NCBI RefSeq assembly: GCF_000446015.1
Contig: NC_022093.1
Span: forward strand, 870,001 to 902,000
Direction of reading: 5' to 3'
Length of the DNA: 32,000 bases
Source: Thermofilum adornatum
GTDB taxonomy: Archaea; Thermoproteota; Thermoprotei; Thermofilales; Thermofilaceae
Both the position numbers and the translations under genes were made by a program. A model generated the notes under the pieces. It had not been told where the DNA came from, searched no databases, and was given only the letters and a program-made list of their open reading frames with translations. Below, one piece after another: positions 1,167 to 28,112 of this stretch (positions are counted from its first letter, which is position 1; every line of letters begins with the position of its first letter).

Positions 1167-1625
1167 ATGTACATGGATGTGGACATGTTCTGGGAAGACG
1201 TCGAGAAAAGAGTGAAAAAGGTCATCGATGGGGTAGAAGAGACACTCAAGGTCATGCTTGAAAACAAGAAGTTAACAGTTGAGGAGGCACAGGAAATCTT
1301 GGATTCTCTTGCTCCAAGTTTTTCCCTGCTTGCTAGAAAAGGTGTTCTGCAGATTCTATACACATTGTTGCTTCTGGGACCATGCACGTTTACAGAGCTT
1401 CTAGAATCCTCAAAGGTAAATCGCAGAACGCTCTCTTTTCGGCTGAAACAGCTTCAACGTGAAGCAATGATAACTAGATATATAGAGACGGTCGACAGGG
1501 AGAGGCAAGGAAAGACTCTCTATGTATTGACAGAGAAGGGGAGGTCTGCGGCGCTCCTTGCCATCCCCCTTATCTACTACATATCGAAGATGCATAAATC
1601 TTCTAGTCTCCATAACTCGCTATAG
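1167..1625 (+). CDS. Winged-helix transcriptional regulator, HxlR/ArsR-like
   Basis: KGVLQILYTLLLLGPCTFTELLESSKVNRRTLSFRLKQLQREAMITRYIE...TLYVLTEKGRS matches the HxlR-type wHTH pattern (recognition helix plus wing, Y-x-LT-x-KG). The true start may be ATG 1173 or 1185. Confidence 0.7.
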   Translation: MYMDVDMFWEDVEKRVKKVIDGVEETLKVMLENKKLTVEEAQEILDSLAPSFSLLARKGVLQILYTLLLLGPCTFTELLESSKVNRRTLSFRLKQLQREAMITRYIETVDRERQGKTLYVLTEKGRSAALLAIPLIYYISKMHKSSSLHNSL

Positions 1626-2672
1626 AACAAAAGGATCTATTTCAAGAACTATTCTCCTAGGCCTTGGGTCTCCAGACCTAAAAAGAAGAGCGTTCCCCCT
1701 GGTTCCAAAAGCTATGTGGTCAAATTCTTCTCTGCCAAGCGAAAATAGGGAAGCTATGTCAGCAATGTAGCTCTCGGGTCCAGAGAGCGCCACCACGTAT
1801 CCTGCTAGCTGGAAGATCCTTGGGTCAAATTCTCGGGGGAGCTGTGTGACGGCAAGTATGCTCAGGCCGAACTTTCGTATCTCCTTGAATAGTCTTAGGA
1901 AGTAGTCTTTTAGCAGATGTGCCTCTTCTAGGACAACTATTAGGTCCACCCTATTTCTAGAACCAAGACTCCTCATATATCCTTCTAGTAGGAGAAGTAA
2001 AATCTGTGAAGCAGTGGCATGAAGCTCTCGCGAGACTAAGGTCGGAAACGTAATGTGGAGGTTCTTTTCAGCGAGCTCTCTTATTTTGAAGCCGTCCTCG
2101 GAATAGAGTTTTCGCAGATCATCATATATACGTTTGAGGTTGGGATCCTCATTTTTTACTCTTTCGAACGGATACAGACTTTTCTCTTCAAAGCATTTAG
2201 CTAGGATTTCTCTTAGAATGCTCCTATACCCGGGAAATGCATATATTTTCTCGAGGTAATAGGAAAGCTCGCTGGCAAGCTCTTCGGGGCTCCAGCCAGG
2301 GTGTTCCATGAAGTATATTTTTTCCACGGTGAGCTCTAGTCTCGTGTCCATTATGCTTGTATAGGATTTTTCGCTGTGTGGGTCTATTACCCACTCCTTT
2401 ATGCCCATTTTCTGGGCCTGCAAGAGGATATGTCTAGCAAGTGTTGATTTTCCTGAACCAGTGGATCCTACGATTACTCCATGCATGTTAGGCAATTTGG
2501 AGGGGTTAACCCTGACTTCTCTTCCTCTATCGTCTCGGCCTAGTATAAACCCATGAGTTTCTTCTGGGGGAGACAGTATACTGAAAGGGGTGAATATTGC
2601 TAGGTCGCCTGATAGACCGAAAGCCTCGCGTGAAAAGGCTTTTCTCATGTAATGATAAAGGGTTTCGCTCAT
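1620..2672 (-). CDS. P-loop ATPase of the HerA/VirB4/FtsK class (CedB/TedB-like ATPase domain)
   Basis: Walker A is GSTGSGKST about 70 aa from the N-terminus, followed by VIDPHSE, Walker B LIVVLEEAHLL and AVTQLP. This motif order is typical of VirB4/HerA (DUF87/AAA_10-like). ATGA start/stop overlap with the upstream ORF at 2669-2672. Confidence 0.75.
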   Translation of the reverse strand: MSETLYHYMRKAFSREAFGLSGDLAIFTPFSILSPPEETHGFILGRDDRGREVRVNPSKLPNMHGVIVGSTGSGKSTLARHILLQAQKMGIKEWVIDPHSEKSYTSIMDTRLELTVEKIYFMEHPGWSPEELASELSYYLEKIYAFPGYRSILREILAKCFEEKSLYPFERVKNEDPNLKRIYDDLRKLYSEDGFKIRELAEKNLHITFPTLVSRELHATASQILLLLLEGYMRSLGSRNRVDLIVVLEEAHLLKDYFLRLFKEIRKFGLSILAVTQLPREFDPRIFQLAGYVVALSGPESYIADIASLFSLGREEFDHIAFGTRGNALLFRSGDPRPRRIVLEIDPFVL

Positions 2673-3751
2673 TCTAGGACACCTAGAGGAAGCAGGGATT
2701 TTTTAAATATGAAACCCACAGTTTTCAGGATTTTTACCTCGTTTTGTGTAGCAGCTAAGAGGCCTGATACGAGGTATAAGCTTTCTCTTCTCTCCCATCT
2801 TCGTCTGCTTGCTGCAAAAAACTTTGCACTGCTGTGGATGACGGAAAGCTTGTCGAGCGCGGTACCAAGCTCGTAATCTCTATAGGCTTTCGAATCTATT
2901 TCGTGTTCTACGTGTAATGGGCCCGGCGTTAGCCGTAGTAGTAAGAATATTTTGTCTGAAATGCTGTAGATCAATTGGGCTCGGGAAAAGATATCGAAGA
3001 TTGAGGGATACGAATAGAAACTTTGAATAGAGTCTAGCGTATAGAGCTCAGTAGAGTTCTTCCTCCTGTATCCGTGAAGATTTCCTGGAAAACTTGCTAA
3101 GAGGAGTGCTGAGGAGACGGGAAACAAAACAGGTGTCTTAAAGAAAAGGATTGAACCAAGGATTGCTAGGAAAAATTTTCTCAATTTGTTTCTTTTCGCT
3201 TTTTCTATGAAATCTGGACGCAGAATTCTATAGACTTCTGAACCACTCATAGGTCTGAAACTTAAACCGTGTCTCTCAAATGAACGTTTAAGTCTATAAA
3301 CTTCGCTCTTTATTTTTTCAGGTAAAGCTTCGAATCTGTTTGTGCACATCCTAGTGACGATGAAATATCTTCCCCTGTCAACTACTATAAAATAGGTATT
3401 ATTTCCTGTAAAAGTTGTATTTATAAAACTCTGGGTATAAAACCAGAATCTCTTTTCGCTCAAGTCGTTAACGTTGTGGCGTACATCAAAGAGCTCAAAC
3501 CCTATGTAGATGCATGTCTCATGCTTCCTAGCTTCCATGCAAAAATCCTCATCAATCGAGATTTCTCTAAGCGGATAACCTCCCAAAGCGAAAATAAGCG
3601 ACCAGACGTATATCTCTGGGAAGAAGAGTAGAAGAGATAAACTAATTATGGCTTGTCCTACTAGCTTCTCCTCTGGTCTACTCATGAGAAATATTCCCAG
3701 AGCAAAAAGCAGAAGAACAAAAAGATACCTTGTCTTCACATCATTCACCAA
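2669..3751 (-). CDS. Membrane protein, unknown family (N-terminal TM helices, soluble domain, central TM hairpin, C-terminal domain); possible detached VirB4/CedB N-terminal part
   Basis: Hydrophobic stretches YLFVLLLFALGIFLM, AIISLSLLLFFPEIYVWSLIFALGG and FFLAILGSILFFKTPVLFPVSSALLLASF. Tightly coupled on both sides. Start is ambiguous (TTG 3751, GTG 3748 or GTG 3739). Confidence 0.6.
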   Translation of the reverse strand: MVNDVKTRYLFVLLLFALGIFLMSRPEEKLVGQAIISLSLLLFFPEIYVWSLIFALGGYPLREISIDEDFCMEARKHETCIYIGFELFDVRHNVNDLSEKRFWFYTQSFINTTFTGNNTYFIVVDRGRYFIVTRMCTNRFEALPEKIKSEVYRLKRSFERHGLSFRPMSGSEVYRILRPDFIEKAKRNKLRKFFLAILGSILFFKTPVLFPVSSALLLASFPGNLHGYRRKNSTELYTLDSIQSFYSYPSIFDIFSRAQLIYSISDKIFLLLRLTPGPLHVEHEIDSKAYRDYELGTALDKLSVIHSSAKFFAASRRRWERRESLYLVSGLLAATQNEVKILKTVGFIFKKSLLPLGVLE

Positions 3752-6323
3752 ATTTTCTCCTAATTCTCTTCCAAAGCCCTTCTAAAGAATCAAACCTGCC
3801 TTCTCCGAGATAAAACCTTCTAAGCCCCTCAACTTCGATTCTTTCCTCTCTTTCAAGTATATCAAGTGCCTTAAGTCTAAGCATTCTCTTTACATCTCTG
3901 TCTGCAAAGAAGCTCAGAGGGACTCTAAGCTTCCTGGCAAGAATCTCGAAACTTTTTGGGTCTAGAGAGAGACTTGAAAGGGCCTCGTCTACTTCCCGCA
4001 GGCTCGAAGCCTTTCTTACCTTGTCTATGACCTTGTCTATTATCTGAGTATTCTCTCCAGACTTCTCCAAGCTCTTCCTAACTTCCTCTAGATGTGTGGT
4101 TGCCTGCTCCTTATAGCGTTCAAGAAAGTCTCTGTAAATTCCTGGAAAATATACCTGGAGAACCTGGTCATTATCGTCACGCATCCTTTTGAGCCTAGGG
4201 TCGTAGCCCATAAGGTATAGCCTTAGATTGGAGTAGCTATCCTCTAGGCGGCTCTGCAATCTTTTGGCAAGGTACCCGCTTTCTCTATGCAGGTATCGAA
4301 TTGCATTTACACTTGCTACGGGAAGGCTTTGATCTGCAAACCTACTTGCTTTCTCTACCTTTGAAGCAAACATATACAGTTTTCTTGCTTTGCTTTCTTT
4401 GTAGTGTTGCCTCGCAAAATCTCCGAGATTCATTAGTGTGGCGCTTGTGAATCTTAATATCGCTGGAAGTGGTTTATGGGATAGATATTTTGGAGATTCC
4501 CGTATTATTCTCTTAGAGAGTCTGCCGATGGTGACTACGGGATGATCCTTCTCTACTTCTCTACTTAAAACTAGCTCCTTATAGAGGGTACTAGGTCGCC
4601 AATCAATTTTTATAACGTTACTGTTTAGAGACCAAATTCTTTTAAGCTTTTTAGCCAGAGACACAAAACTGAAATGCGTTGAGTGTTTAAGAGAACTGAA
4701 ATGAATGCTTATCGGTGAAAAAATAGCCACTGAATAATACCCAACCGTTAACAAGATCCCGCTAAACATTATGAAGACCAAGAGAAAACTCTTGTAGAGT
4801 GCTAAGAGAGGGTAGATAAAACTGTTAAAATTTTCCTTAAGCCACCCATCTATGTGTGACACCTTTTGCCACAATGAAAGGTATGTTGGTGCAGAGCTGT
4901 GATTCCAATACCCTATCCCGTGTATTATGATTTTCGGGGAGGAAACGTTCCCGGAAAAGACTCCGGAGCAGTTCTTCTTGCCGAACCATATCTTTATGCC
5001 ATACTCTCTAAAGTTTGGTACTTCATCTTTAAGAACCAACTTGTCTGATAAGAATCCTGGAATCGCGTTGCGGATACGTTCAACCCAGTCATCGTAGCTC
5101 TTTTTCCAACTGTCTAATGCTCCGAGGTCTGCTATAACTCCTGGAGGCATTTCGTTTGTTACCCTGTAGTATAGAGTCCAGCAAGTCCCGTTCTTACTTA
5201 TAAGGGATTCATTCAAGTAGACAAGCTGGAAGTCTCCCCCCCGGATAAAAAACTCTCTAACAGATGTGCTGGGCTCCAAGGCAAACTCGACAGTGCCATT
5301 CTCGTTTCTCGAAGGGCGTAAGGGCACAACGCCTTCATATGCCACAACGTGGCCCATAGTTCCTTTTTCAGACGTAATGAGGAATATGGGTAGCCACACG
5401 TTGAGTTCTAGCGTTTGATTTGGCTTGAGAGAGAACTTTGCTGGGTAGGCGTAGCAGCTGCAGTATGAATAGGGAGATTTTTCATAGCAACATGGATGTA
5501 AAGTGAAATTTGTCCAATAGTTAATTATCCAGAGGACTGTATAGTTCCCCGCAGGTAGAACTAGCTGGTCACCATTTTTACCCTTTACAACAAAGAGCGT
5601 CGAGTTGGCATCTCGGAGACCTATAAGTATTGTGTCAAGTGTAGGGGTATCAGAAAAGTCTTTTACTTTAAGTCTAAGGGTTCCAGTAGGACTAGGCATG
5701 GCTCCGAATGGAGGCATTGATGTAGGTATAGACTCTGTCTCAGAAATAGTGTATGGGAGAGCTAAAGAAAAAGCCAACAGTATCACAGAAGTTGGTAAAG
5801 CAAACTTCCTAATTTTCGGTACCAGGCTTAGAAGAATTATGGTTCTAGTTACGTTTCTTAGATTTCTTAAAGAATCTATTAGGAACCCTGTAATGCTTGT
5901 AATGAGCCAGGCTGCGCCTGTCTGAACTGAGAGGTATTCAAGCTGTGCAAGAACCGTATGTCGGAACAGGTCAAAATACTCGAGGGCGATTGTTGCCTCG
6001 GGTGCACCTAGTGTTGCGGCCAAGCTTATAATTGAATCAACAACTGCGCTGCCAAAGAGTAGTTGCAAAGCTCCAGTATAGGCTTTGTACAAATTTCCCT
6101 CAAGCTCTTTAAGTTTCTTAATAGAACAATCTATGCTTACCATTGCATATTGTGAGTAAAGTCTTAGCAGTATCACAACGACTCCTGCATAGAGGATCAG
6201 TTCTACAACTCTTTGCGACAATACGTTTAGCGATTGTTTCCGTCTCTGAGTAAACCAGTAGAAGAGAGCCTCGGCAACGACCAGAGAAAAAGCCAACCCG
6301 AACCAAACAAGTTCCTCGTTCAT
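3741..6323 (-). CDS. Large (860 aa) membrane glycoprotein: N-terminal TM bundle, sequon-rich ectodomain, TM hairpin, about 300-aa charged helical cytoplasmic domain
   Basis: Long uninterrupted ORF. About ten N-x-S/T sequons (NST, NYT, NFT, NQT, NGT, NES, NGT, NCS, NVS, NHS) are confined to the region between the TM clusters. Cys cluster HPCCYEKSPYSYCSCY. ATGA overlap with the upstream gene at 6320-6323. Confidence 0.7.
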   Translation of the reverse strand: MNEELVWFGLAFSLVVAEALFYWFTQRRKQSLNVLSQRVVELILYAGVVVILLRLYSQYAMVSIDCSIKKLKELEGNLYKAYTGALQLLFGSAVVDSIISLAATLGAPEATIALEYFDLFRHTVLAQLEYLSVQTGAAWLITSITGFLIDSLRNLRNVTRTIILLSLVPKIRKFALPTSVILLAFSLALPYTISETESIPTSMPPFGAMPSPTGTLRLKVKDFSDTPTLDTILIGLRDANSTLFVVKGKNGDQLVLPAGNYTVLWIINYWTNFTLHPCCYEKSPYSYCSCYAYPAKFSLKPNQTLELNVWLPIFLITSEKGTMGHVVAYEGVVPLRPSRNENGTVEFALEPSTSVREFFIRGGDFQLVYLNESLISKNGTCWTLYYRVTNEMPPGVIADLGALDSWKKSYDDWVERIRNAIPGFLSDKLVLKDEVPNFREYGIKIWFGKKNCSGVFSGNVSSPKIIIHGIGYWNHSSAPTYLSLWQKVSHIDGWLKENFNSFIYPLLALYKSFLLVFIMFSGILLTVGYYSVAIFSPISIHFSSLKHSTHFSFVSLAKKLKRIWSLNSNVIKIDWRPSTLYKELVLSREVEKDHPVVTIGRLSKRIIRESPKYLSHKPLPAILRFTSATLMNLGDFARQHYKESKARKLYMFASKVEKASRFADQSLPVASVNAIRYLHRESGYLAKRLQSRLEDSYSNLRLYLMGYDPRLKRMRDDNDQVLQVYFPGIYRDFLERYKEQATTHLEEVRKSLEKSGENTQIIDKVIDKVRKASSLREVDEALSSLSLDPKSFEILARKLRVPLSFFADRDVKRMLRLKALDILEREERIEVEGLRRFYLGEGRFDSLEGLWKRIRRKFGE

Positions 6324-7099: not shown

Positions 7100-7693
7100 C
7101 TACCCCGTGAATACTGAAATAATAATTTTCCAGCCCTCGTTCAGCAGAGTATTAAAAATCTCGGCAATTGAAGATATTTCGTTTATTCCAATATTTTTCA
7201 TGATGTTCACGAGTAGGAAAAGCAAGGGAATAATGGCGAGTGTTTCGACTGCTCTTAAAAATTTGCTTACGGCAAGACTTCTCCCAAAACTGCCACCTGT
7301 GACCCAGGAAACAACTGCGTCAAAAACTATGAAGAAGAAGCCGAGCAAGCCAATGCCAAAAGCTATGGCAAAGAGAAGTGCAACAGCGTCTCGAAATGGC
7401 TTAAAAATATTTGTTATGAGGTCTGAGGGCTGTGCAAGAATTATTCTTGTGTCTACAGTAACGATTTGAATGAAAAATAGCAGGAGCAACGATTTTAGAC
7501 GCTTTTTGTTGTCATGCAAGGCCTCTTCTATAGCGAGTTTTATTTTCCTGAAAGTTTCCTTGTCGGAAAAATTTTTTCTATCAAATTTAGCAATTCTCCT
7601 CAAATTATACTCATAGAGCACCCTGATAAGAATCAGTTTTAGCCGACTCATAACTCTCTGGCAAGATTTTGCTGGAACAATATAAGTTGGCAC
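7100..7693 (-). CDS. VirB2/TrbC-like pilin candidate with long N-terminal leader
   Basis: GTG start (alternative ATG at 7651). Basic n-region KKRLK, h-region SLLLLFFIQIVTV and c-region ending ILA|QPS. Then two hydrophobic helices (AVALLFAIAFGIGLLGFFFIVFDAVVSWV and AVETLAIIPLLFLLVNIM) joined by a basic loop (GGSFGRSLAVSKFLR). Confidence 0.5.
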   Translation of the reverse strand: MPTYIVPAKSCQRVMSRLKLILIRVLYEYNLRRIAKFDRKNFSDKETFRKIKLAIEEALHDNKKRLKSLLLLFFIQIVTVDTRIILAQPSDLITNIFKPFRDAVALLFAIAFGIGLLGFFFIVFDAVVSWVTGGSFGRSLAVSKFLRAVETLAIIPLLFLLVNIMKNIGINEISSIAEIFNTLLNEGWKIIISVFTG

Positions 7694-7718
7694 AAATTGG
7701 AAGTCTCCTCTGGCATCG

Positions 7719-7727
7719 CTATATATT
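7719..7727. promoter_or_regulatory. Palindromic TATA element (CTATATATT) in the 65-bp divergent spacer of the two operons
   Basis: Centre is about 30 nt from GTG 7693 (minus operon, near-leaderless) and about 36 nt from ATG 7759. GAGGGGT (7744-7750) is a Shine-Dalgarno-like element 8-9 nt before ATG 7759. Confidence 0.45.
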
Positions 7728-7758
7728 CCCTCAGGTAAAGGTTGAGGGGTAAAAAATC

Positions 7759-8478
7759 ATGAGCGATATTGTTGCCTTTGGAAGTGGCTATAAAGGTGGA
7801 ACAGGAAAAAGTGTACTATCGAGTTTGGTTGGATATACGCTTGCTGTGAATGGGAGAAAGGTTCTGCTAGTCGACTTGGGCGAGTACGGTAGTAGCACAA
7901 ACCTTTGCCTAGAGGAAGATCCCGGACCCCCATACTTGTCAGATTTCTTTTGGGGAAAAGCCACGTGGAGAGACGTCATAGTTGAAAGCAGTTATTCGTC
8001 CAACCTCTGGATAGCTCCAAGCTCCAAGGAACAAGGACCAATAGACGCGGAAAGCCTAGAATACCTACTGGACAACGCTAGTAAATATGTGGACTACGTA
8101 ATACTCGACCTGCCGTCTTATCCAGGGACACTTCTTGACCCCATAGTGTTGCTAGCAGACATAATTGTACTTGTAACCAACCCAGATAGGCTCTCTATAC
8201 TTGCTGTAAAAAACTGGATATCTACGCGTCCCTTTGCCAAAAACAATATCTTAAAAATTCCTGTTTTGAACAAATACCACTCTCTCTTGCACAAATGGCT
8301 GGACAAGATGCGAGAGGAGTACGGTGTAGTATTTCCCATAAGCTTTGACCCGGCTTTGACATTTACTTTTACAGAGACAATAAAGGAAGCCTACAGCCTA
8401 ATAAGTAAAAGAACCAGGGAAGAGGTCATGCTACTTGTACAGAGAATAAACAAGCCCCTCCTAAAGGTGACTGGATAA
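7759..8478 (+). CDS. ParA/MinD-family ATPase (TadZ/CpaE-like position)
   Basis: Deviant Walker A GSGYKGGTGKSV, then VLLVDLG, then Walker B-like VILDLP. The stop overlaps the next start (TAATG at 8476-8480). Confidence 0.8.
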   Translation: MSDIVAFGSGYKGGTGKSVLSSLVGYTLAVNGRKVLLVDLGEYGSSTNLCLEEDPGPPYLSDFFWGKATWRDVIVESSYSSNLWIAPSSKEQGPIDAESLEYLLDNASKYVDYVILDLPSYPGTLLDPIVLLADIIVLVTNPDRLSILAVKNWISTRPFAKNNILKIPVLNKYHSLLHKWLDKMREEYGVVFPISFDPALTFTFTETIKEAYSLISKRTREEVMLLVQRINKPLLKVTG

Positions 8479-8846
8479 TGAGCCACAAAAGACCCCTAGT
8501 CAATGAAGGTCAACTAGAAGAGAAGCCTCGAGAAGAAACCTCCAGCAAGCCACAGTTATCAACGCCTAGACCTGCAATTCTACAAACAAGGACAGACAGA
8601 AGTGGCGGCAATACAAGTGGAGACTTCGTCCAAAAAGGTCTAGAGGGTTTCAAGGCGGTTCTACAGTCTCTGGGGCTTGATTCTTCGCTAGCCTCAAAGC
8701 TAGAAGAAAAATACTTTGCAATAGATGAGGAAATCAGGAAAATAAACGAGAAAATAGATTCACTAGAAAGGGAAAGAAACAAGCTCCTAGCAGACAAAGA
8801 GAAACTGACCAGACTCCTCAAAATGTTTTCAGAAATAAGAAGCTGA
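8478..8846 (+). CDS. Small protein with disordered N-terminal half and C-terminal coiled coil
   Basis: S/T/P/R-rich N-terminus. The C-terminus EEIRKINEKIDSLERERNKLLADKEKLTRLLKMF is heptad-like. Translationally coupled between two ATPase genes. Confidence 0.55.
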   Translation: MSHKRPLVNEGQLEEKPREETSSKPQLSTPRPAILQTRTDRSGGNTSGDFVQKGLEGFKAVLQSLGLDSSLASKLEEKYFAIDEEIRKINEKIDSLERERNKLLADKEKLTRLLKMFSEIRS

Positions 8847-8851
8847 AAAAC

Positions 8852-10006
8852 ATGAAGATAAAGTTTAGATTCAAAGATAAAAAAGAAAAAGAACTTATCC
8901 CAGTAGAGGACTCTATTCCAAGAGACTCGATACTTATAGACAAAAATCCCTTGGGCGCCCTGTTTATACGGGACTCCACACTGTCTGTGATTCCATTCAA
9001 GGATGACGACGTTTGGGGCCCATTGGGAGCTCTCTTCGCATCCGACAAGGTTGAGGAAGCCTGGATATTCAAAGACAAAATAATTGCGACGCTCAGTAAT
9101 CTTGGTCGAATACAGCTCTCGCTAGACAATCTCGACATACGGGTCGAGGACATAATTTCTCGTCTAATTGCTCATACAGGTGTAAATGTTTCCTTTAGAA
9201 ACCCGCGCGGCGTCGCCGAGTACGGTAACTGGAGGATAGCTATACAGCTCCACTCCGGCGGACAACTACACGTTGTAGCTACAAAGATAAAAAAGGTGCC
9301 GCCAATCACGGAGATCCTTCCCCCAGAGATAAGTGTAAAACTCCTCTTGTTGATCTTAAGGCCTAGCACAGTTATTATTAGTGGGCCCCCAGGAAGCGGA
9401 AAGACAACATTACTAAGTAGCATAGTGGGGACTCTAGGTCAGCTATTCCCCTGGCTCCACATAGCCATAGTCGAAAAATACAGGGAACTCGACTTTCAAG
9501 GAGGATGGTTTTCACACGTTGTAAGCGAAGATATAGCCGAAGGAGTCAGGTACTCAATGCGGTACCTCCGCCCAGACCTACTAGTCGTCGGAGAAATAAT
9601 GGCCGAGGACTTCTGGAGCCTCCTCGAGCCATCGAGAGCAGGCATCCCGACACTAACTACCTTCCATGCTCCCTCGGTCGAAAAAGCCGTAAGAACTCTC
9701 AGCGACGCGCTACAGGTACATCTCAAGGGCTCTCCAAACGTCTACACATACCTCGACATAATAGTAAACACAAAAAAACTTGTGACCATTGACGGTGTAA
9801 AAAGATTCGTAAACGCGATATACATCTCAGACGGACAGAGAATACTACCAATATACCTCGACGGCCAACCAGTCGACGACAAACTACTCGAAAAAGCACT
9901 CCCAGACAAACTCTACATAGGCGACACAAAACAAGTAGAAGAAACCCTCCTCAGGCACCTCGTAAAAACCCACGTAGACAACAGAGTCCAAGCAAAGGTC
10001 ACATAG
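8852..10006 (+). CDS. Type II/IV secretion-family hexameric ATPase (VirB11/PilT/TadA/FlaI class)
   Basis: Walker A ISGPPGSGKTTLLSS, Asp/Walker B box RYLRPDLLVVGEIMAEDFW and His box TLTTFHAPSVEKAVRTL. The N-terminal domain carries a GNWRIAIQL...VVATKIKK pattern typical of this family. Confidence 0.8.
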   Translation: MKIKFRFKDKKEKELIPVEDSIPRDSILIDKNPLGALFIRDSTLSVIPFKDDDVWGPLGALFASDKVEEAWIFKDKIIATLSNLGRIQLSLDNLDIRVEDIISRLIAHTGVNVSFRNPRGVAEYGNWRIAIQLHSGGQLHVVATKIKKVPPITEILPPEISVKLLLLILRPSTVIISGPPGSGKTTLLSSIVGTLGQLFPWLHIAIVEKYRELDFQGGWFSHVVSEDIAEGVRYSMRYLRPDLLVVGEIMAEDFWSLLEPSRAGIPTLTTFHAPSVEKAVRTLSDALQVHLKGSPNVYTYLDIIVNTKKLVTIDGVKRFVNAIYISDGQRILPIYLDGQPVDDKLLEKALPDKLYIGDTKQVEETLLRHLVKTHVDNRVQAKVT

Positions 10007-10010
10007 CACC

Positions 10011-11420
10011 TTGAACCCGGAAGAGTTCTTCAGAAAAGCAGGACTAAAACCAAGACCACTACAGCTAGAAGCAGCCAAACAGCTCGCCGAAATGATCGAC
10101 ACAGGTTCAGTAGGCTTCCAGGCTCCCACCGGTTTCGGAAAAACAATTACAGTTCTAGCCGCGATATCACTTGCAGACGCGTTTCCAGTAACTTGGAGAG
10201 TCCGAACATTCGACATAGCGAAACGGGTCTCTGATGACTGCGCGCTCTTAGGACTTCCATTCTATATAGCTGCTGGACGCGAAAAACTCTGTCCTCTAAA
10301 AGAAGAATATAAATCAAACACCTACTATTTTTGCAGGTTTCTAAAATTTAAGTGTCCATTCTTTAAAGGTTTGTCAAGTATCAAACCAGAAAACATTTTT
10401 AGTGTCGACTATGACCAGTTGTTAAGAAAGCTAAAGGGCACAGAGATTTGTCCTTACTATGCTCAGCTCTATCAGCAAGCTCACGTCTACATTATTCCCT
10501 ATAGTCTAGGTTTGTCATTCGACGTCAACTTAGAGGTAATTGATGAGGCACATAATATGGTACTTGATGTTTATAGTATTCCTGAGGCAAAACTTAGAGA
10601 AGCCTTAGCTGAATTGGATATTCACTACGAACCCACAGGAGACCTAATCCAGCAAGCATTCATTGAGACTGCCCAGATGAAGATCGTAGAGCTACTCGAA
10701 CAGGGAAAAATGCCACTCATTGCGGGAAGAGTAATAGCAATGCTTGCCAGGGGAACCTTTATTTGGCGAGAGGAGGGAGAGATACACATTCTGAAATTTA
10801 TTCGACCAAGGAAAAGAACGATTTTCGTAAGTGCAACACTAGAACCTTTACAAAAAATATACAATATACCTGTTTTAGAAATACCTGTTCAGAGAAAACC
10901 AGAAGCACTCATTGCAACGTGGATGACGACTAGATTTCATGAATGGGACTATAAGATGGCTAAGGAATATAATGATTTGATTTTTCTCCTCAGAAAACAT
11001 TTCCAAAGAATAGTTGTATTTGCTACTAAAAGAGTAGCTCGTAGCCTAAGGGCGGACTACGTGGAAGAAGCCCCCAGTGATTGGAAAGGTGTATTTCTAC
11101 TTTTTTCCCGTGGTAAAAAAGGTGAAGGAGTAAATATAGAATCAGAAGTTGTTGTCGTAGCAGGAGCCCCATATCTTCCACCTTTTATACACGTAGAGAA
11201 ACTTGGTTTAACTCATGATGATGTGGCAACAATCACGACGATACAGAATATTGGGCGCACCTTAAGGCATCCTGAAAACAACCCTTTGATCATACTAGCT
11301 GACGATCGTTTTCGAAAACTGAAACCCACACTAGATAGATACTATACAAACATAGAGACGGATGATCTACACTCGTTAGATAAAGCGATACAAAAATACA
11401 AAGCTTCCCATCCAAGCTAA
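10011..11420 (+). CDS. XPD/Rad3/DinG-family superfamily-2 helicase, compact (469 aa), with 4-Cys Fe-S cluster domain
   Basis: Motif I QAPTGFGKT. Cys ligands are C94-x13-C108-x6-C115-x31-C147 ending in CPYY. DEAH box VIDEAHN, then FVSATL, GEGVNI and QNIGRTLRH. TTG start 4 nt after the upstream stop. Confidence 0.75.
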   Translation: MNPEEFFRKAGLKPRPLQLEAAKQLAEMIDTGSVGFQAPTGFGKTITVLAAISLADAFPVTWRVRTFDIAKRVSDDCALLGLPFYIAAGREKLCPLKEEYKSNTYYFCRFLKFKCPFFKGLSSIKPENIFSVDYDQLLRKLKGTEICPYYAQLYQQAHVYIIPYSLGLSFDVNLEVIDEAHNMVLDVYSIPEAKLREALAELDIHYEPTGDLIQQAFIETAQMKIVELLEQGKMPLIAGRVIAMLARGTFIWREEGEIHILKFIRPRKRTIFVSATLEPLQKIYNIPVLEIPVQRKPEALIATWMTTRFHEWDYKMAKEYNDLIFLLRKHFQRIVVFATKRVARSLRADYVEEAPSDWKGVFLLFSRGKKGEGVNIESEVVVVAGAPYLPPFIHVEKLGLTHDDVATITTIQNIGRTLRHPENNPLIILADDRFRKLKPTLDRYYTNIETDDLHSLDKAIQKYKASHPS

Positions 11421-22967: not shown

Positions 22968-25900
22968 ATGAGTAGAAAATACCTATTAGGAATAATAGCC
23001 CTAGTAGCAATACTCGCACTGACACTGCAAGCATACGCTGCACCTACGTTCCCAGCCCACAGGGCATGGAACGTGCTACAGTATCCAAATGGTCAGCCAT
23101 TCAAGAACCAAAACGTTATCATTGTCTACTTTAACGAGACAGGCAACTGTCTACTCGCATACGCTGTTGGAACAACAAATTCTGCAGGAAACATAACCCT
23201 AACAATTGCCCAGCCCGGAGGAGTAATAAATACTCCAAACACTGGCACAAGCTACAACATGTCAGTATTCTGGCAAGTCTACGGCAAAACATTCCTAGTA
23301 TACTCAACACGCACCAACGCCCTCAACCTACTCAACTCCACCATTCAGCTTACAAACATGATGAACTTCACCTTCCAGGCTCTAACAACGATTGGCGGTC
23401 AGCAGGTTCCGCTATACTTTGCTGACCCAGAGGTTTCTGGCAGGAAAGACATTGCCTACTTCCAGGTATACTTATACAACAAGAACGGGCCACAACTCCT
23501 GGCAGTAGAAGGAGACAACAATGCTATTTCAAAGGGAAGTGTTGTAGTTCCACTAGTTGAGGTCAACATAAAGCCGACACTTACACCTAACTGTTACCAC
23601 ATTGAAAGCCAAAAGAACGTGGCTCTCTACAAGGAGGTATACTGGCTCCTCGACCAGGGCGGAGGACAAAAACTGAAAATAATGGTAGGCAAAGAGAACG
23701 TAACATTCTCACTTTCTGGAACAACCCTCACTGCAAATGTTAAAGACCTGGCAGATGGCACAACATCTCCACAGACCTTCGACATAGTAAACGACTGGGG
23801 CAAAAAACCACTGAACGACGTTGCACACACCTTCCTAGCACAAGTAGTTGTCACAGACCCATGCGGCAACCCGATCTCCAACTGGGAATACCCACCAATA
23901 GGTATCGAATTCACTTCTCCAACATATGGTAAGCTCAGAGTAGGAAAAGCCTTCCCGAACGGGACAGCTCCAGAAGAAGGATACCAGTTAAGTGGTCACT
24001 ACTACTTCTGGTTACCAAACATATCCCTATTCTACAATGAAAAAATGGGCATCGCTGCCGAAATAGGAGGTATACAGGTATTTGCAGAAGCCTTCAACAC
24101 AACAAAACCACAAAGCGTAACATACAATAAACCATTCACCTTCCAGCCGCTCACAGTATCAACTAGCAATGGAATAGTAACATTAACAATAAAGGCAAGC
24201 ATAGTCAAGACCCAGATCACCATCAAGACCAGTGGACTCGTAGCCGTCCAGCCACTCCAGGGAGCAATTGTCCAGATAAGCCCAAGAGTCTTCGACCCCA
24301 ACACCTATACTGACGCTAACGGACAAGTAGCACTAATGCCATTCCAGATAGTTGGCGGCGGAACAACAACCTCTGGCACGCCAATAATCACAAGGAAGGG
24401 CACATCCCCAGGCTACCTGCCAGTCCCATATGGTTTATGGTCAACAGGCAAACTATACACCTACACTATTAACGTGTTATGGGCACTACCAGGAACAGAA
24501 AACTTCGTAGATGTAACTCCAGACCAGAACACAATACCACTAAACCTAACCAAAGCCATTGTACAGTGCTCAGTACAGTCTTTCAACCTATCCGCAAAGG
24601 TTTACGCTGTCAACTTTAAAGCAGTCGACCTATGCGGCCGCCCACTCACCAGCGCAGACGACCCCAACGCCACATTCATCCTAACCTACAAGTCCACCGA
24701 CGGGACAACCATTAACTTCCCAGCAGGACTCGGACCCAACGGAACAACATTCATGGCCTTCGTCCCAGGAGGAACATTTACTGTAAGCCTCTTCTTCAAA
24801 GGAGTCAGAATGGATCCCGTAAGTGGACCCAACCCACTAGTCGTTAGCGGGAACATCGGAAACATTAGCAAAGCCACCTACACATTCCCTGTCGGCGACC
24901 TCATCTTGAGGATAACCCCATGGGACGTCAAGGAACCCCTCGTTAACGTTTCAGTGCTCCTCGAATACTTTAAAGCCGGCGCTAGAACATACTACGAGGG
25001 ACCAAAGCTCACAGACTGTGAAGGCAAAGTAACCTTTACAAAGGTGCCCTTCGTAGTTGGACCCAACAACCTCGTAACTGTGACCATAAAGACAACTCCA
25101 TACACCCCCTACATACGCCACCCGAAGGACGATGGCCTACTAATTGGTAAATGGAACCTTACAGGCCTACTGAAGGGAATCAGTCCAGGATGCACAGTCG
25201 GGCCAATCGACGTGCCGACCTGGGTCTTCAGCTTCACACTTGAAGCAGTAGACCACAACGGCAACATACTCAAAGAGCTCCCAACAAGCAACGGCGCAGC
25301 ACCAGTAATCGTCGCCATAAACGACACCTACACAAAGAACGAGTACAACGTGACACAGGTATGCCAGGGTGGACCCGGCTGCCTCTGCTGGCCACTCATA
25401 AACGTAAACTACAAGATATTCAACACCACTAAGTCCGGCCCAGCAGGGCCATGGAACAACGGCCTGTCCGAGGCCAGGTTCAAGGTCACCGGTACACAGT
25501 GGGCAAACAGCAACTATCCACACCTATTCATTGCTGGAGCCAACTACAGCTTCGTCGTGTGGTACGGAGGAGTAATGGTCTACAACTACAACTTCACACT
25601 ACCAAGGCCAAGCGAGATGCTCGACTACAGTAAAGTCATAACTGCACAGGTTATACTCTACAACGAGACAAGCGGCAAGATGACCCTACAGAAGACCGAC
25701 AGCCTTGCCTATACATGGCTACTCGCTAGTGGCGGAAGAATCGAGCACCCAATCGTCCGCTTCTACGCGGCACCAGCATACAGCGGCCAATACAGCAACA
25801 AGCTCCAGCTCGTAACCTGGGTAGTCAACCTCGACATCTACACCTTGACGAAGGCAGGCGGAGGACTAGTCCCAGGACTCAACGTCACACTAATCAGGAA

Positions 25901-28112
25901 CGACGCAGTAAACTGGAAGACACAGCTAAAGGGCGACCTCTACGCCAACATCACAGTGCCAACTGAATACACCAAGTCTGCCAGTATGAGCTACGCGTGG
26001 AGCGCAGTTACTGGCCAGGACGGCAAAGCAAGCCTACCAATAGCAATATGGGTGCCCAAGGCAAGCGTCAGGCCTAGCGGCATAAAGTTCGGAGCAAGCA
26101 TCACAAACGTCTACGTGCTTGCAGGCAAGAAGTACGGTACACCAAGCGTCCCAGACACACCATCATACACGACAATTACTGGCATAGGCACGCTATATGG
26201 CTACAACGTCGGGCCATACAACATGACTCTCGACGCAATCTATAACGACGTCAGCCAGAGCCCAGACTGGTACAAGCAGTACGGCGGAAGCTGGGTAGGA
26301 CCATTCCGCGGACCAAAGGCGTGGATCGGAGCCAACTGGAACATGACACTGTGGAGCGGAGCAGCCAAAGTAGTCTACACCACTGCCATGGAGGGCGTAT
26401 GCCTCCAGGTAGTCGGGCCAGACTTCAGAGACAACATGATACCACTTGCAAACCAGCCAGTAACCCTCACAGTATATGGCAGTACAGGTGCCACAGCCAC
26501 CGTGGCCTCTGGCAGCACTGGAAATGACGGCACATTCCCAGTATACCCAGACAAGGGCTCAACCGTAGCCACACCAGTCGGAAGCAAGACAGTCTTCACA
26601 GGCAAACTCGTCTTCCTAGGAATCTCAGGCCTCAGTTATGAAGGCTCAACAACACTTAACCTCGACGCCGCGCTCGGCCTAAAGAACTATGGCTTAGACA
26701 CAGGCAAGGCCTTCGACCCAGATACCCTAGAACAGGAGATATCATTCACACTTGACAACAACATGCCAGGCGGCACATGCGTAACCCTAGAGTGGGATGC
26801 AATAAAGGTAACAGTCTTCGACTGGAGCGGCAAGCCACTAAAGAATATGATGGTCGCAGCTATACTCAGGGAGCCAAGAGCAAAGGCAATACCAAGCGTA
26901 GCAGGCTTCACAGCTGAAAACGGAAGCGTCATACTCTACGTACCACCAAGCGAGGAGAACAAGTACCAGCTCCTCGTCTACTGGCGTGACAGCTACTTGC
27001 TCAGGCTTGCCGGCAAGATTCCGAGAGAAATCGTGATCTTTGACACTGTAACTGACTACGACACGCCAAGAACTTACAAGCCTGGAAGCGGTACAACACT
27101 TGAGACCTTCGTTTACGTAGGCATAGTTATGCTCAAGAATGCCCAGGGACAGGCCCTTTCACCAGACATACTTAACAAGATAACTGTAGAGATACAGTGG
27201 CCAGACCAGGTAGTAACAACCCACAAGCCAGAAAACGACGGTAGAGTACCAATAATACTCAACAAGAACACCGCCAAGTCATGGCCACTCGACGCAAGCG
27301 CAAACAGGAGCCCAGACACAGACCCAAGAGACATAAGCCAGGCACCACTAGGCGCCTACAAGGTAACAGTCAACCTTGCTGGAGTAGGCACACTTGCACA
27401 GCAGACGATTAAGATCGAGAAGGGCAGGTTCGAGACAAGCACACAGATATTCGAAGTAAGGCTCGACATCTTCGATGTCAAACTGACCTTCGTGTCTCCA
27501 TTCGGCACACCTCTCGCCAACGCAAAAGTCACAATAACCAAGCCAGACGGGACCACTGTCTCTGACACTCTCGACGCAAGTGGTAGCATAGTTGTAAAAG
27601 AAGTACCACCAGGCAACCTGCAGTACACTGTAGCGGAATGGAACGGTCTACCAGTCCAGTTCAGCGGTAGCGTTGCACGTGCAGGCGAAATCGGAGTAAC
27701 AGTCACGAAGATAGGCAAACTCACTGTTAAAGTGCTTGGCGCAAGAGGACAAGGCATTGACGGCGCAACCGTTGCAGTCGAAAAGGTCGGCACATTCACT
27801 ACTGACGCTAGCGGCGTTGTAAGCCTCGAGCTCCCAAGCGGAAGCTACGGCGTAACTGCAAGCAAGGGCGGAAGAACTGCCAGCGCTACTGCAACTGTAA
27901 CAGACGGCAAAGAAACCGTGACAGAGCTAAAGCTTGACATCTTCCTGACACTCGCAGGCTGGGAGATGAGTAGCAACGAGTTCCTCGGACTCATACTGCT
28001 CCTCGTCCTACTCGTCCTCGTCCTCTTCATAATTGCACACGAATACGCTGTCTACAGACGCCGCCGCCTCGCAAAAGTCATTGCTCCAGCTGAAGGAACA
28101 CAGGTAAAATAA
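22968..28112 (+). CDS. Giant surface (S-layer-type) glycoprotein, 1714 aa, signal peptide plus C-terminal membrane anchor
   Basis: Signal peptide MSRKYLLGIIALVAILALTLQAYA|AP. About 28 N-x-S/T sequons by my hand count. Recurring beta-sandwich-like modules (x-TD-x-x-G-x-V-x-L). C-terminal TM LGLILLLVLLVLVLFII followed by YRRRR. Confidence 0.8.
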   Translation: MSRKYLLGIIALVAILALTLQAYAAPTFPAHRAWNVLQYPNGQPFKNQNVIIVYFNETGNCLLAYAVGTTNSAGNITLTIAQPGGVINTPNTGTSYNMSVFWQVYGKTFLVYSTRTNALNLLNSTIQLTNMMNFTFQALTTIGGQQVPLYFADPEVSGRKDIAYFQVYLYNKNGPQLLAVEGDNNAISKGSVVVPLVEVNIKPTLTPNCYHIESQKNVALYKEVYWLLDQGGGQKLKIMVGKENVTFSLSGTTLTANVKDLADGTTSPQTFDIVNDWGKKPLNDVAHTFLAQVVVTDPCGNPISNWEYPPIGIEFTSPTYGKLRVGKAFPNGTAPEEGYQLSGHYYFWLPNISLFYNEKMGIAAEIGGIQVFAEAFNTTKPQSVTYNKPFTFQPLTVSTSNGIVTLTIKASIVKTQITIKTSGLVAVQPLQGAIVQISPRVFDPNTYTDANGQVALMPFQIVGGGTTTSGTPIITRKGTSPGYLPVPYGLWSTGKLYTYTINVLWALPGTENFVDVTPDQNTIPLNLTKAIVQCSVQSFNLSAKVYAVNFKAVDLCGRPLTSADDPNATFILTYKSTDGTTINFPAGLGPNGTTFMAFVPGGTFTVSLFFKGVRMDPVSGPNPLVVSGNIGNISKATYTFPVGDLILRITPWDVKEPLVNVSVLLEYFKAGARTYYEGPKLTDCEGKVTFTKVPFVVGPNNLVTVTIKTTPYTPYIRHPKDDGLLIGKWNLTGLLKGISPGCTVGPIDVPTWVFSFTLEAVDHNGNILKELPTSNGAAPVIVAINDTYTKNEYNVTQVCQGGPGCLCWPLINVNYKIFNTTKSGPAGPWNNGLSEARFKVTGTQWANSNYPHLFIAGANYSFVVWYGGVMVYNYNFTLPRPSEMLDYSKVITAQVILYNETSGKMTLQKTDSLAYTWLLASGGRIEHPIVRFYAAPAYSGQYSNKLQLVTWVVNLDIYTLTKAGGGLVPGLNVTLIRNDAVNWKTQLKGDLYANITVPTEYTKSASMSYAWSAVTGQDGKASLPIAIWVPKASVRPSGIKFGASITNVYVLAGKKYGTPSVPDTPSYTTITGIGTLYGYNVGPYNMTLDAIYNDVSQSPDWYKQYGGSWVGPFRGPKAWIGANWNMTLWSGAAKVVYTTAMEGVCLQVVGPDFRDNMIPLANQPVTLTVYGSTGATATVASGSTGNDGTFPVYPDKGSTVATPVGSKTVFTGKLVFLGISGLSYEGSTTLNLDAALGLKNYGLDTGKAFDPDTLEQEISFTLDNNMPGGTCVTLEWDAIKVTVFDWSGKPLKNMMVAAILREPRAKAIPSVAGFTAENGSVILYVPPSEENKYQLLVYWRDSYLLRLAGKIPREIVIFDTVTDYDTPRTYKPGSGTTLETFVYVGIVMLKNAQGQALSPDILNKITVEIQWPDQVVTTHKPENDGRVPIILNKNTAKSWPLDASANRSPDTDPRDISQAPLGAYKVTVNLAGVGTLAQQTIKIEKGRFETSTQIFEVRLDIFDVKLTFVSPFGTPLANAKVTITKPDGTTVSDTLDASGSIVVKEVPPGNLQYTVAEWNGLPVQFSGSVARAGEIGVTVTKIGKLTVKVLGARGQGIDGATVAVEKVGTFTTDASGVVSLELPSGSYGVTASKGGRTASATATVTDGKETVTELKLDIFLTLAGWEMSSNEFLGLILLLVLLVLVLFIIAHEYAVYRRRRLAKVIAPAEGTQVK

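Follow-up and report, generated by a model that had tools for sequence, protein, structure and literature searches.

Within a 32,000-nucleotide stretch of Thermofilum adornatum DNA (NC_022093.1, positions 870,001 to 902,000; hereafter the window), the minus-strand gene at 7100-7651 probably encodes the precursor of a VirB2/TedC-type conjugative pilin, which would polymerise into the filament of a chromosomal apparatus for DNA exchange in Thermofilaceae, Ted-like and derived from type IV secretion. We consider it likely that this pilin is a new and highly diverged member of the VirB2/TedC kind. The strongest support for the pilin reading comes from gene context. An earlier note on this DNA had proposed that an open reading frame at 7100-7693 (minus strand) encodes the filament subunit of the locus; we confirmed that the frame is present and real, with homologues and conserved columns, and the filament-subunit reading survived the tests applied here, since the protein is laid out as TedC is, a TedA homologue lies next door and a split TedB lies in the same operon. 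The coordinates of the features are given in Table 1.

Table 1 Features of the probable pilin-precursor gene and its surroundings. Positions are those of the window; residue numbers count from the GTG at 7693.
Feature	Positions	Strand	Remarks	Mean top-residue frequency
Divergent partner operon	7759..11420	+	ParA/MinD-like ATPase, 122-aa coiled-coil, VirB11/T2SSE-class ATPase, XPD-like helicase	
TATA-like box CTTATATT	7679..7686	-	Centre ~31 nt upstream of ATG 7651	
Probable 5′ non-coding stretch, 42 nt	7652-7693	-	Coding only in the GTG-start version	
Probable pilin-precursor gene	7100..7651	-	Favoured start ATG 7651, 183 aa, stop TAG 7100-7102	
Leader as a whole		-		about 0.35
Leader n-region, residues 15-62	7508..7651	-	Basic, helical, predicted cytoplasmic pre-segment; absent from distant members	
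Signal-peptide-like unit, residues 63-87	7433..7507	-	KKRLK, h-region SLLLLFFIQIVTV, c-region ILA	
Predicted mature pilin, 110 aa (Q88-G197)	7103..7432	-	AlphaFold2, family conservation	
Helix alpha1, residues 98-132, hydrophobic	7298..7402	-	A..FG.G..GF small-residue motif, invariant W130	0.60
Basic loop GGSFGRSLAVSKFLR, residues 133-147	7253..7297	-	Most conserved part of the protein	0.73
Helix alpha2, residues 148-166, hydrophobic	7196..7252	-	Nearly invariant P156, likely kink	0.68
Helix alpha3, residues 171-196, amphipathic, ends ...VFTG	7106..7183	-	AlphaFold; TedC counterpart ends ...VVTG	0.53
ORF257, TedA/VirB6-like polytopic membrane protein, 257 aa	6320..7093	-	6 nt downstream of the pilin-like gene	
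ORF860, 860-aa membrane protein	3741..6323	-	TM bundle, ectodomain, TM hairpin, helical cytoplasmic domain	
ORF360, N-half of split TedB/VirB4-like protein (TM anchor and VirB4 N-domain)	2669..3751	-	hhalign	
ORF350, ATPase half of split TedB/VirB4-like protein	1620..2672	-	hhalign, Pfam	

As the earlier note had claimed, the pilin-like gene is the first of a minus-strand operon, which comprises five tightly packed genes and is faced across a short spacer by a plus-strand operon. Its immediate downstream neighbour, ORF257, is a homologue of TedA. When 12 members of the ORF257 family were compared with six sequences regarded as TedA because their genes immediately follow that of TedC, hhalign gave a probability of 98.1% (E 1.2e-13) over 238 columns, which is almost the whole length. 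In Ted loci the gene order is tedC-tedA and the gene at the position upstream of tedA is the pilin (Beltran et al. 2023, PMC9905601); the placement of ORF257 reproduces this order, with the pilin-like gene directly upstream of the TedA-like gene. The 6-nt gap between the two has no room for a terminator, so nothing shows the excess expression of the pilin that the earlier note had associated with its first position. Among 120 genomes of the class, pilin-like and TedA-like genes occurred in exactly the same 15, which span at least two taxonomic families, and the two genes were adjacent in 14 of these; in the other (G021) the best matches lie on different contigs. The pilin-like protein also displayed weak similarity to the TedA-like N-terminus (E 0.0038, probability 8.7%). 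This echoes published resemblances between CedA1 and CedA, in which a pilin and the N-terminal part of its channel protein are alike, and between VirB2 and VirB6.

The VirB4-like TedB ATPase is represented in the operon by two genes. Against 12 TedB/VirB4-like proteins of ~680 aa, P. calidifontis TedB among them, ORF360 aligned with template columns 82-365 (probability 89.8%, E 1.8e-6) and ORF350 with template columns 393-740 (probability 100%, E 3e-39), and together the two frames (1620-3751, minus strand) correspond to one TedB/VirB4-like protein of ~680-700 aa in Thermoproteaceae-like genomes. ORF350 further matched Pfam DUF87/HerA, with NCBIfam CedD, VirB4 and CedB matches below cutoff, and a BLASTP comparison of ORF360 with a 698-aa VirB4-like protein returned nothing. 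The two genes overlap by ATGA, and the split is kept in Infirmifilum and Thermofilum relatives. As judged from these alignments, ORF360 and ORF350 are a naturally split VirB4/TedB.

The remaining gene of the minus operon, ORF860, resembles in layout and position the giant open frame (over 2,862 aa) located after tedA in P. calidifontis (region L049:416-9001), without significant similarity between the two proteins by BLASTP or hhalign. The N-terminal bundles of both carry the motif V/I-P-[KR]-[IL]-R-x-[FIG], comparable to IPRLRKIG of ORF257, and in other genomes large proteins encoded at this downstream position were weakly matched at their N-termini by the ORF257 profile. These sequences suggest that proteins of the ORF860 type may be TedA paralogues fused to an ectodomain and a cytoplasmic domain.

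The divergent operon is conserved beside the pilin-like operon in relatives. In two Thermofilum sp. metagenome-assembled genomes (L003 and L004, locus 7843-9892) it is without the VirB11-class ATPase and the coiled-coil gene, and the XPD-like helicase comes directly after ParA, which means that not every such locus includes the secretion ATPase. In both Infirmifilum and Thermofilum, the two-operon locus lies in chromosomal synteny beside genes for geranylgeranyl reductase and an HxlR regulator; two of three relatives examined also have a peptidase M24 gene at its opposite end. The locus is, like Ced and Ted, a domesticated system of the chromosome rather than a plasmid.

We then consider the predicted mature domain. 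Kyte-Doolittle analysis gave three hydrophobic segments (68-88, 99-134 and 144-171), and AlphaFold2, run on a 27-sequence alignment (pLDDT 85.9, pTM 0.62), predicted helices at 98-132, 134-166 and 171-196 (35, 33 and 26 residues) and a short helix at 89-96. The full-length model contained the same helices, with an uncertain leader. Two long hydrophobic helices are thus predicted to be joined by the basic loop TGGSFGRSLAVSKFLR and followed by an amphipathic C-terminal helix, and the loop carries the positive charges R138, K144 and R147. This agrees with the two-helix hairpin with a basic loop that the earlier note had described, an architecture of VirB2 type. By contrast, the tail after helix 2, given there as about 45 aa, is ~31 aa long (167-197) and is predicted to form the single helix at 171-196; nor is the C-terminal extension atypical, as had been thought, since TedC (8DFT) also has a third helix. 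Conservation is highest of all regions in the loop and lowest in the leader (Table 1). If the signal peptide is cleaved, the positive-inside rule would place both termini outside and the loop in the cytoplasm. VirB2-type pilins have the same topology, and their loop lines the pilus lumen; the loop of the window protein is correspondingly predicted to be cytoplasmic in the membrane pool and lumen-facing in the pilus.

The closest likeness in layout is to TedC of Pyrobaculum calidifontis (PDB 8DFT; Beltran et al. 2023, PMC9905601), whose gene is likewise chromosomal and directly upstream of tedA. We located TedC in genome G093 as a 153-aa ORF bearing the published AVA↓QA site, and it matched PDB 8DFT chain A with an E value of 7.5e-64. 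Its elements stand in the same order as those of the window protein: a Sec signal peptide cut before Gln (AVA↓QA in TedC versus the predicted ILA↓QP here), then a mature domain (110-131 aa across the two proteins) in which alpha1 leads through a short loop bearing an invariant Arg into alpha2, and a turn containing Gly connects this to alpha3 and a ...TG end. The two proteins nevertheless lack similarity at the BLAST or HMM level and differ in several details. The leader is 22 aa in TedC as against 73 aa with a basic pre-segment here, the window protein has a short N-terminal tail without the Gly/Thr-rich or N-x-T stretch, and the loop motif is GGSFGRSLAVSK here as against GPTxFxRxG in TedC.

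Profile comparison of the pilin-like family with 13 diverse TedC-family sequences from class genomes produced a single colinear hhalign alignment of 79 columns that starts at the end of alpha1 and continues to the C-terminus on both sides (score 27.1, E 0.0015, probability 17%); in it, R138 is matched to the loop Arg that is invariant among TedC-family members. Shuffling the columns always gave lower scores, with a maximum of 23.3 in 200 global and 21.1 in 200 local shuffles. Rebuilt mature-only profiles gave the same register against TedC (E 0.0095, probability 4%), and chance transmembrane matches reach similar E values, as with an ABC-2 permease in the window's genome (E 0.006). Direct homology to TedC is therefore weakly detectable and not significant by HH-suite probability, so that the alignment is suggestive rather than proof. 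HMM and phmmer searches in both directions detected no similarity between the pilin-like family and TedC; the family HMM had no match outside Thermofilales-like families in the 120 class genomes, and a TedC search in Thermofilaceae had none either. When the full-length and mature-domain models were compared with the PDB by Foldseek, no pilin was retrieved (best E 3.0 and 4.3). The result stands among the points against the pilin reading, although it decides little: short helical hairpins are poor queries, and the two solved archaeal pilins themselves superpose at only 6.5 Å RMSD (PMC9905601 supplement).

The gene could instead encode a non-polymerising inner-membrane component of the same Ted-like translocon, forming part of the channel with the TedA-like proteins and no filament, as proposed for CedA2. 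We regard this as rather unlikely. Operon context and topology fit such a component equally well, and so do the weak similarity to the TedA-like N-terminus, the 6-nt gap without a terminator and the lack of a structural match to pilins by Foldseek. Against it, the protein corresponds to a solved pilin in each of its elements, signal peptide and third helix among them, and the minus operon holds no other pilin candidate. Moreover, the gene at this position of Ted loci is the pilin (PMC9905601), and the most conserved part of the protein is the very loop that would line a lumen. These points favour the pilin reading over that of a channel component.

The predicted leader also bears on the pilin reading. 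The signal-peptide-like unit that the earlier note had placed at residues 63-87 is present as described and is followed by QPSD, with a predicted signal peptidase I cut between A87 and Q88. Distant members of the family (134-144 aa) have ordinary Sec signal peptides of 20-25 aa, for instance MVKKIIAILAAVSSVLAASVALA↓QPGEE, MRWKLLFLTLLATLSYSVSA↓QPKPE and MGYKLQVPCLLLIGLLAARAAA↓QPEGD, and their cut sites ALA↓QP, VSA↓QP, VFS↓QP and AAA↓QP align with ILA↓QP of the window protein. Because the ends of the distant signal peptides align there, ILA↓QPSD is a conserved family feature, and the comparison points to a cleavable Sec signal peptide with A-x-A↓Q-P in register across the family, in keeping with the cut proposed in the earlier note. 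Some Infirmifilum members have degenerate sites (LLS↓TP and APS↓LL), and signal cleavage in these is less certain.

Upstream of the signal-peptide-like unit, only one of the 48 alignment columns of the pre-segment (residues 15-62) is occupied in at least 70% of sequences, and AlphaFold confidence is low. From the alignment, this basic pre-segment of ~53 aa is an add-on confined to the Thermofilum/Infirmifilum genus group. The long cytoplasmic pre-segment of the earlier note accordingly stands as a genus-only feature, but at ~53 aa rather than ~60. A long leader as a property of the whole family was rejected, given the ordinary signal peptides of the distant members. The 73-aa genus-specific leader is the sole feature without precedent among archaeal pilins, and it recalls the bacterial propilins TraA, VirB2 and TrbC.

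A quite improbable reading is that the protein is never cleaved and spans the membrane three times, the signal segment acting as a permanent anchor while the basic N-terminus works in the cytoplasm, for example in docking ParA or ATPases. The n-region is indeed far longer than normal and conserved within the genus, the Infirmifilum members just mentioned have no clean A-x-A site, and the h-region plus c-region spans ~20 residues. However, the plain signal peptides of distant members are cleavable with the site in register, the h-region here contains Asp and Arg, and the bacterial propilins TraA, VirB2 and TrbC combine long leaders with cleavage. If the leader of the proposed pilin is removed, the ~53-aa pre-segment might serve as a pro-domain, either holding the propilin assembly-incompetent in the membrane or docking it to the ParA, VirB11-class or VirB4-like ATPases, so that regulated leader removal would gate pilus growth; with the split TedB, the VirB11-class ATPase and the XPD-like helicase, the locus would then be a Ted variant with its own DNA-processing motor. 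We offer this as a speculation that is unlikely to hold.

The pilin-like family itself is real, conserved, very small and narrowly distributed. A search of 5.8 billion proteins returned 13 close homologues of 164-197 aa, all from Thermofilum, Infirmifilum or metagenome contigs, with 38 invariant columns, a strongly conserved C-terminal region of ~110 residues and an N-terminus of varying length. An exhaustive profile search of 1.84 billion representative proteins yielded 15 clusters at 50% identity, whose members all belong to Thermofilum, Infirmifilum and uncultured Thermoprotei related to them. With 13 close homologues, 15 clusters and 38 invariant columns, the gene is not a chance ORF. The 15 of 120 class genomes that contain the family belong to only two families of the window's own order, and it was not found in the 60 genomes of families f14 and f15 (Pyrobaculum and relatives). 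The window's genome, a complete 1.75-Mb chromosome, has a single copy.

Scans of the window protein against Pfam and NCBIfam gave no match. Pfam TrbC/VirB2 (PF04956) matched one of 21 family members, below the gathering threshold (E 0.46), a per-member Pfam scan with E up to 10 gave noise only, and a profile search of PDB sequences gave only a chance match to CD81. That the gene encodes an unrelated small membrane protein, lying beside machine genes and with a generic two-TM hairpin look, accords with the low information content of helical hairpins, the low hhalign probability and the absence of a Foldseek match, but is highly improbable in view of its co-occurrence with the TedA-like gene in 15 of the 15 genomes having either (adjacent in 14, in at least two families), the conserved synteny and a real hhalign score above all 400 shuffles.

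Two further identities were considered and rejected. A VirB3 would lack a signal peptide, unlike the window protein, and would accompany VirB4, a place taken here by the TM anchor of ORF360. A type IV (class III signal) pilin was dismissed since the cut site lies after the hydrophobic core, not before it.

As regards the start codon, ATG 7651 is more likely than GTG 7693 on comparative grounds. The N-termini of all homologues but one lie at or after the Met aligned with M15; the exception (P0002) is uninformative on the start codon because the upstream DNA of its contig is identical to that of the window. In a relative with 59% identity (L005), an in-frame TGA lies three codons upstream of the shared Met, and an A/T box lies 25-35 nt upstream of the shared Met in 10 of 10 related loci. 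The corresponding box of the window, CTTATATT, falls within the putative GTG 7693 extension. These three observations speak against the GTG start adopted in the earlier note, and with ATG 7651 the leader becomes ~73 aa rather than the 87 aa given there, within a precursor of 183 aa. The box CTTATATT is a candidate promoter for a leaderless or short-leader pilin mRNA. The spacer (7677-7730) holds two TATA-like boxes, this one (7679-7686) and the palindromic AATATATA (7720-7727). The spacing of AATATATA suits the plus-strand parA operon and equally a leaderless GTG 7693, and that of CTTATATT suits ATG 7651.

We propose the following mechanism for the putative pilin. The 183-aa precursor would be brought to the membrane by its Sec-type signal segment (residues 63-87), preceded by the basic pre-segment of ~53 aa. 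Signal peptidase I would cut after ILA87, the conserved site, to leave a 110-aa mature protein with its N-terminus outside. Alpha1 would cross inward, the basic loop GGSFGRSLAVSK would lie on the cytoplasmic face, alpha2 would lead back out and the amphipathic alpha3 would rest outside, and the 110-aa hairpin would be stored in a membrane pool. Subsequently, the TedA-like channel and the split TedB/VirB4-like ATPase may extract subunits together with lipid and stack them into a hollow helical pilus, its lumen lined by the conserved Arg and Lys of the loop. Such a pilus would link cells for the transfer of single-stranded DNA.

To our knowledge, Ced and Ted are the only archaeal conjugation-type pili known structurally. 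Compared with the Ted locus of P. calidifontis, the locus described here has TedB split in two, and a VirB11-class ATPase and an XPD-like helicase next door. The Ced pilin CedA1 (Aeropyrum pernix, Sulfolobales), compared here by description, is likewise an archaeal chromosomal VirB2-like hairpin with VirB6-like and VirB4/HerA-like partners. Its likeness to the N-terminus of its channel protein is weakly seen for the proposed pilin as well, but CedA1 is reported to be unprocessed (PMC9905601), in contrast to the predicted cleavable signal peptide of the present family. The bacterial propilins VirB2, TraA and TrbC (Pfam PF04956 and PF05513) resemble the proposed pilin in several respects: their leader is long and has a basic N-terminal stretch ahead of its hydrophobic core, signal peptidase I removes it, and the protein forms a hairpin of two or three helices whose basic loop faces the lumen (PMC9905601). 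They differ in having a leader of ~36-51 aa as against 73 aa here, and the window protein has no Pfam match; in addition, no cyclisation or acetylation factors are evident in this single-membrane archaeon.

Ted has been reported in five genera of Thermoproteales (PMC9905601), and VirB4 and CedD are present in Thermofilales (PMC11868833). In the literature searched on Ted components and Thermofilum, no Ted pilin or channel is described for Thermofilaceae beyond the VirB4/CedD remark (PMC11868833). The gene would fill the place of the pilin in Thermofilales, as its neighbour would that of the channel protein. It would also mean that these pilins have diverged too far for ordinary sequence searches to find them, whereas TedA can still be recognised, which yields a practical rule for finding such pilins, namely to search immediately upstream of tedA. 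In addition, a plain signal peptide appears to have grown into a long bacterial-style propilin leader within one genus, a tractable case for the study of how propilins are processed. With strains of Thermofilum and Infirmifilum in culture, the prediction is directly testable.

Two minor observations were made alongside. In family f14, an AT-rich region (L021:6853-9091, genome G069) contains a TedA-like gene beside a VirB4-like ATPase and is pilin-free upstream on a short contig, and a similar f14 AT-rich region with a polytopic membrane gene is found at L023:8505-11878 (genome G060). The VirB4-like ATPase at these loci is either a 299-aa ATPase or a 698-aa protein with TM anchors, and neither locus has an adjacent pilin ORF of at least 70-80 aa; they may be integrated conjugative elements rather than Ted loci. 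Within the window, a 1,714-aa ORF at 22968-28112 (plus strand) lies in a region whose G+C content (~47-53%) is higher than that of the rest of the window.
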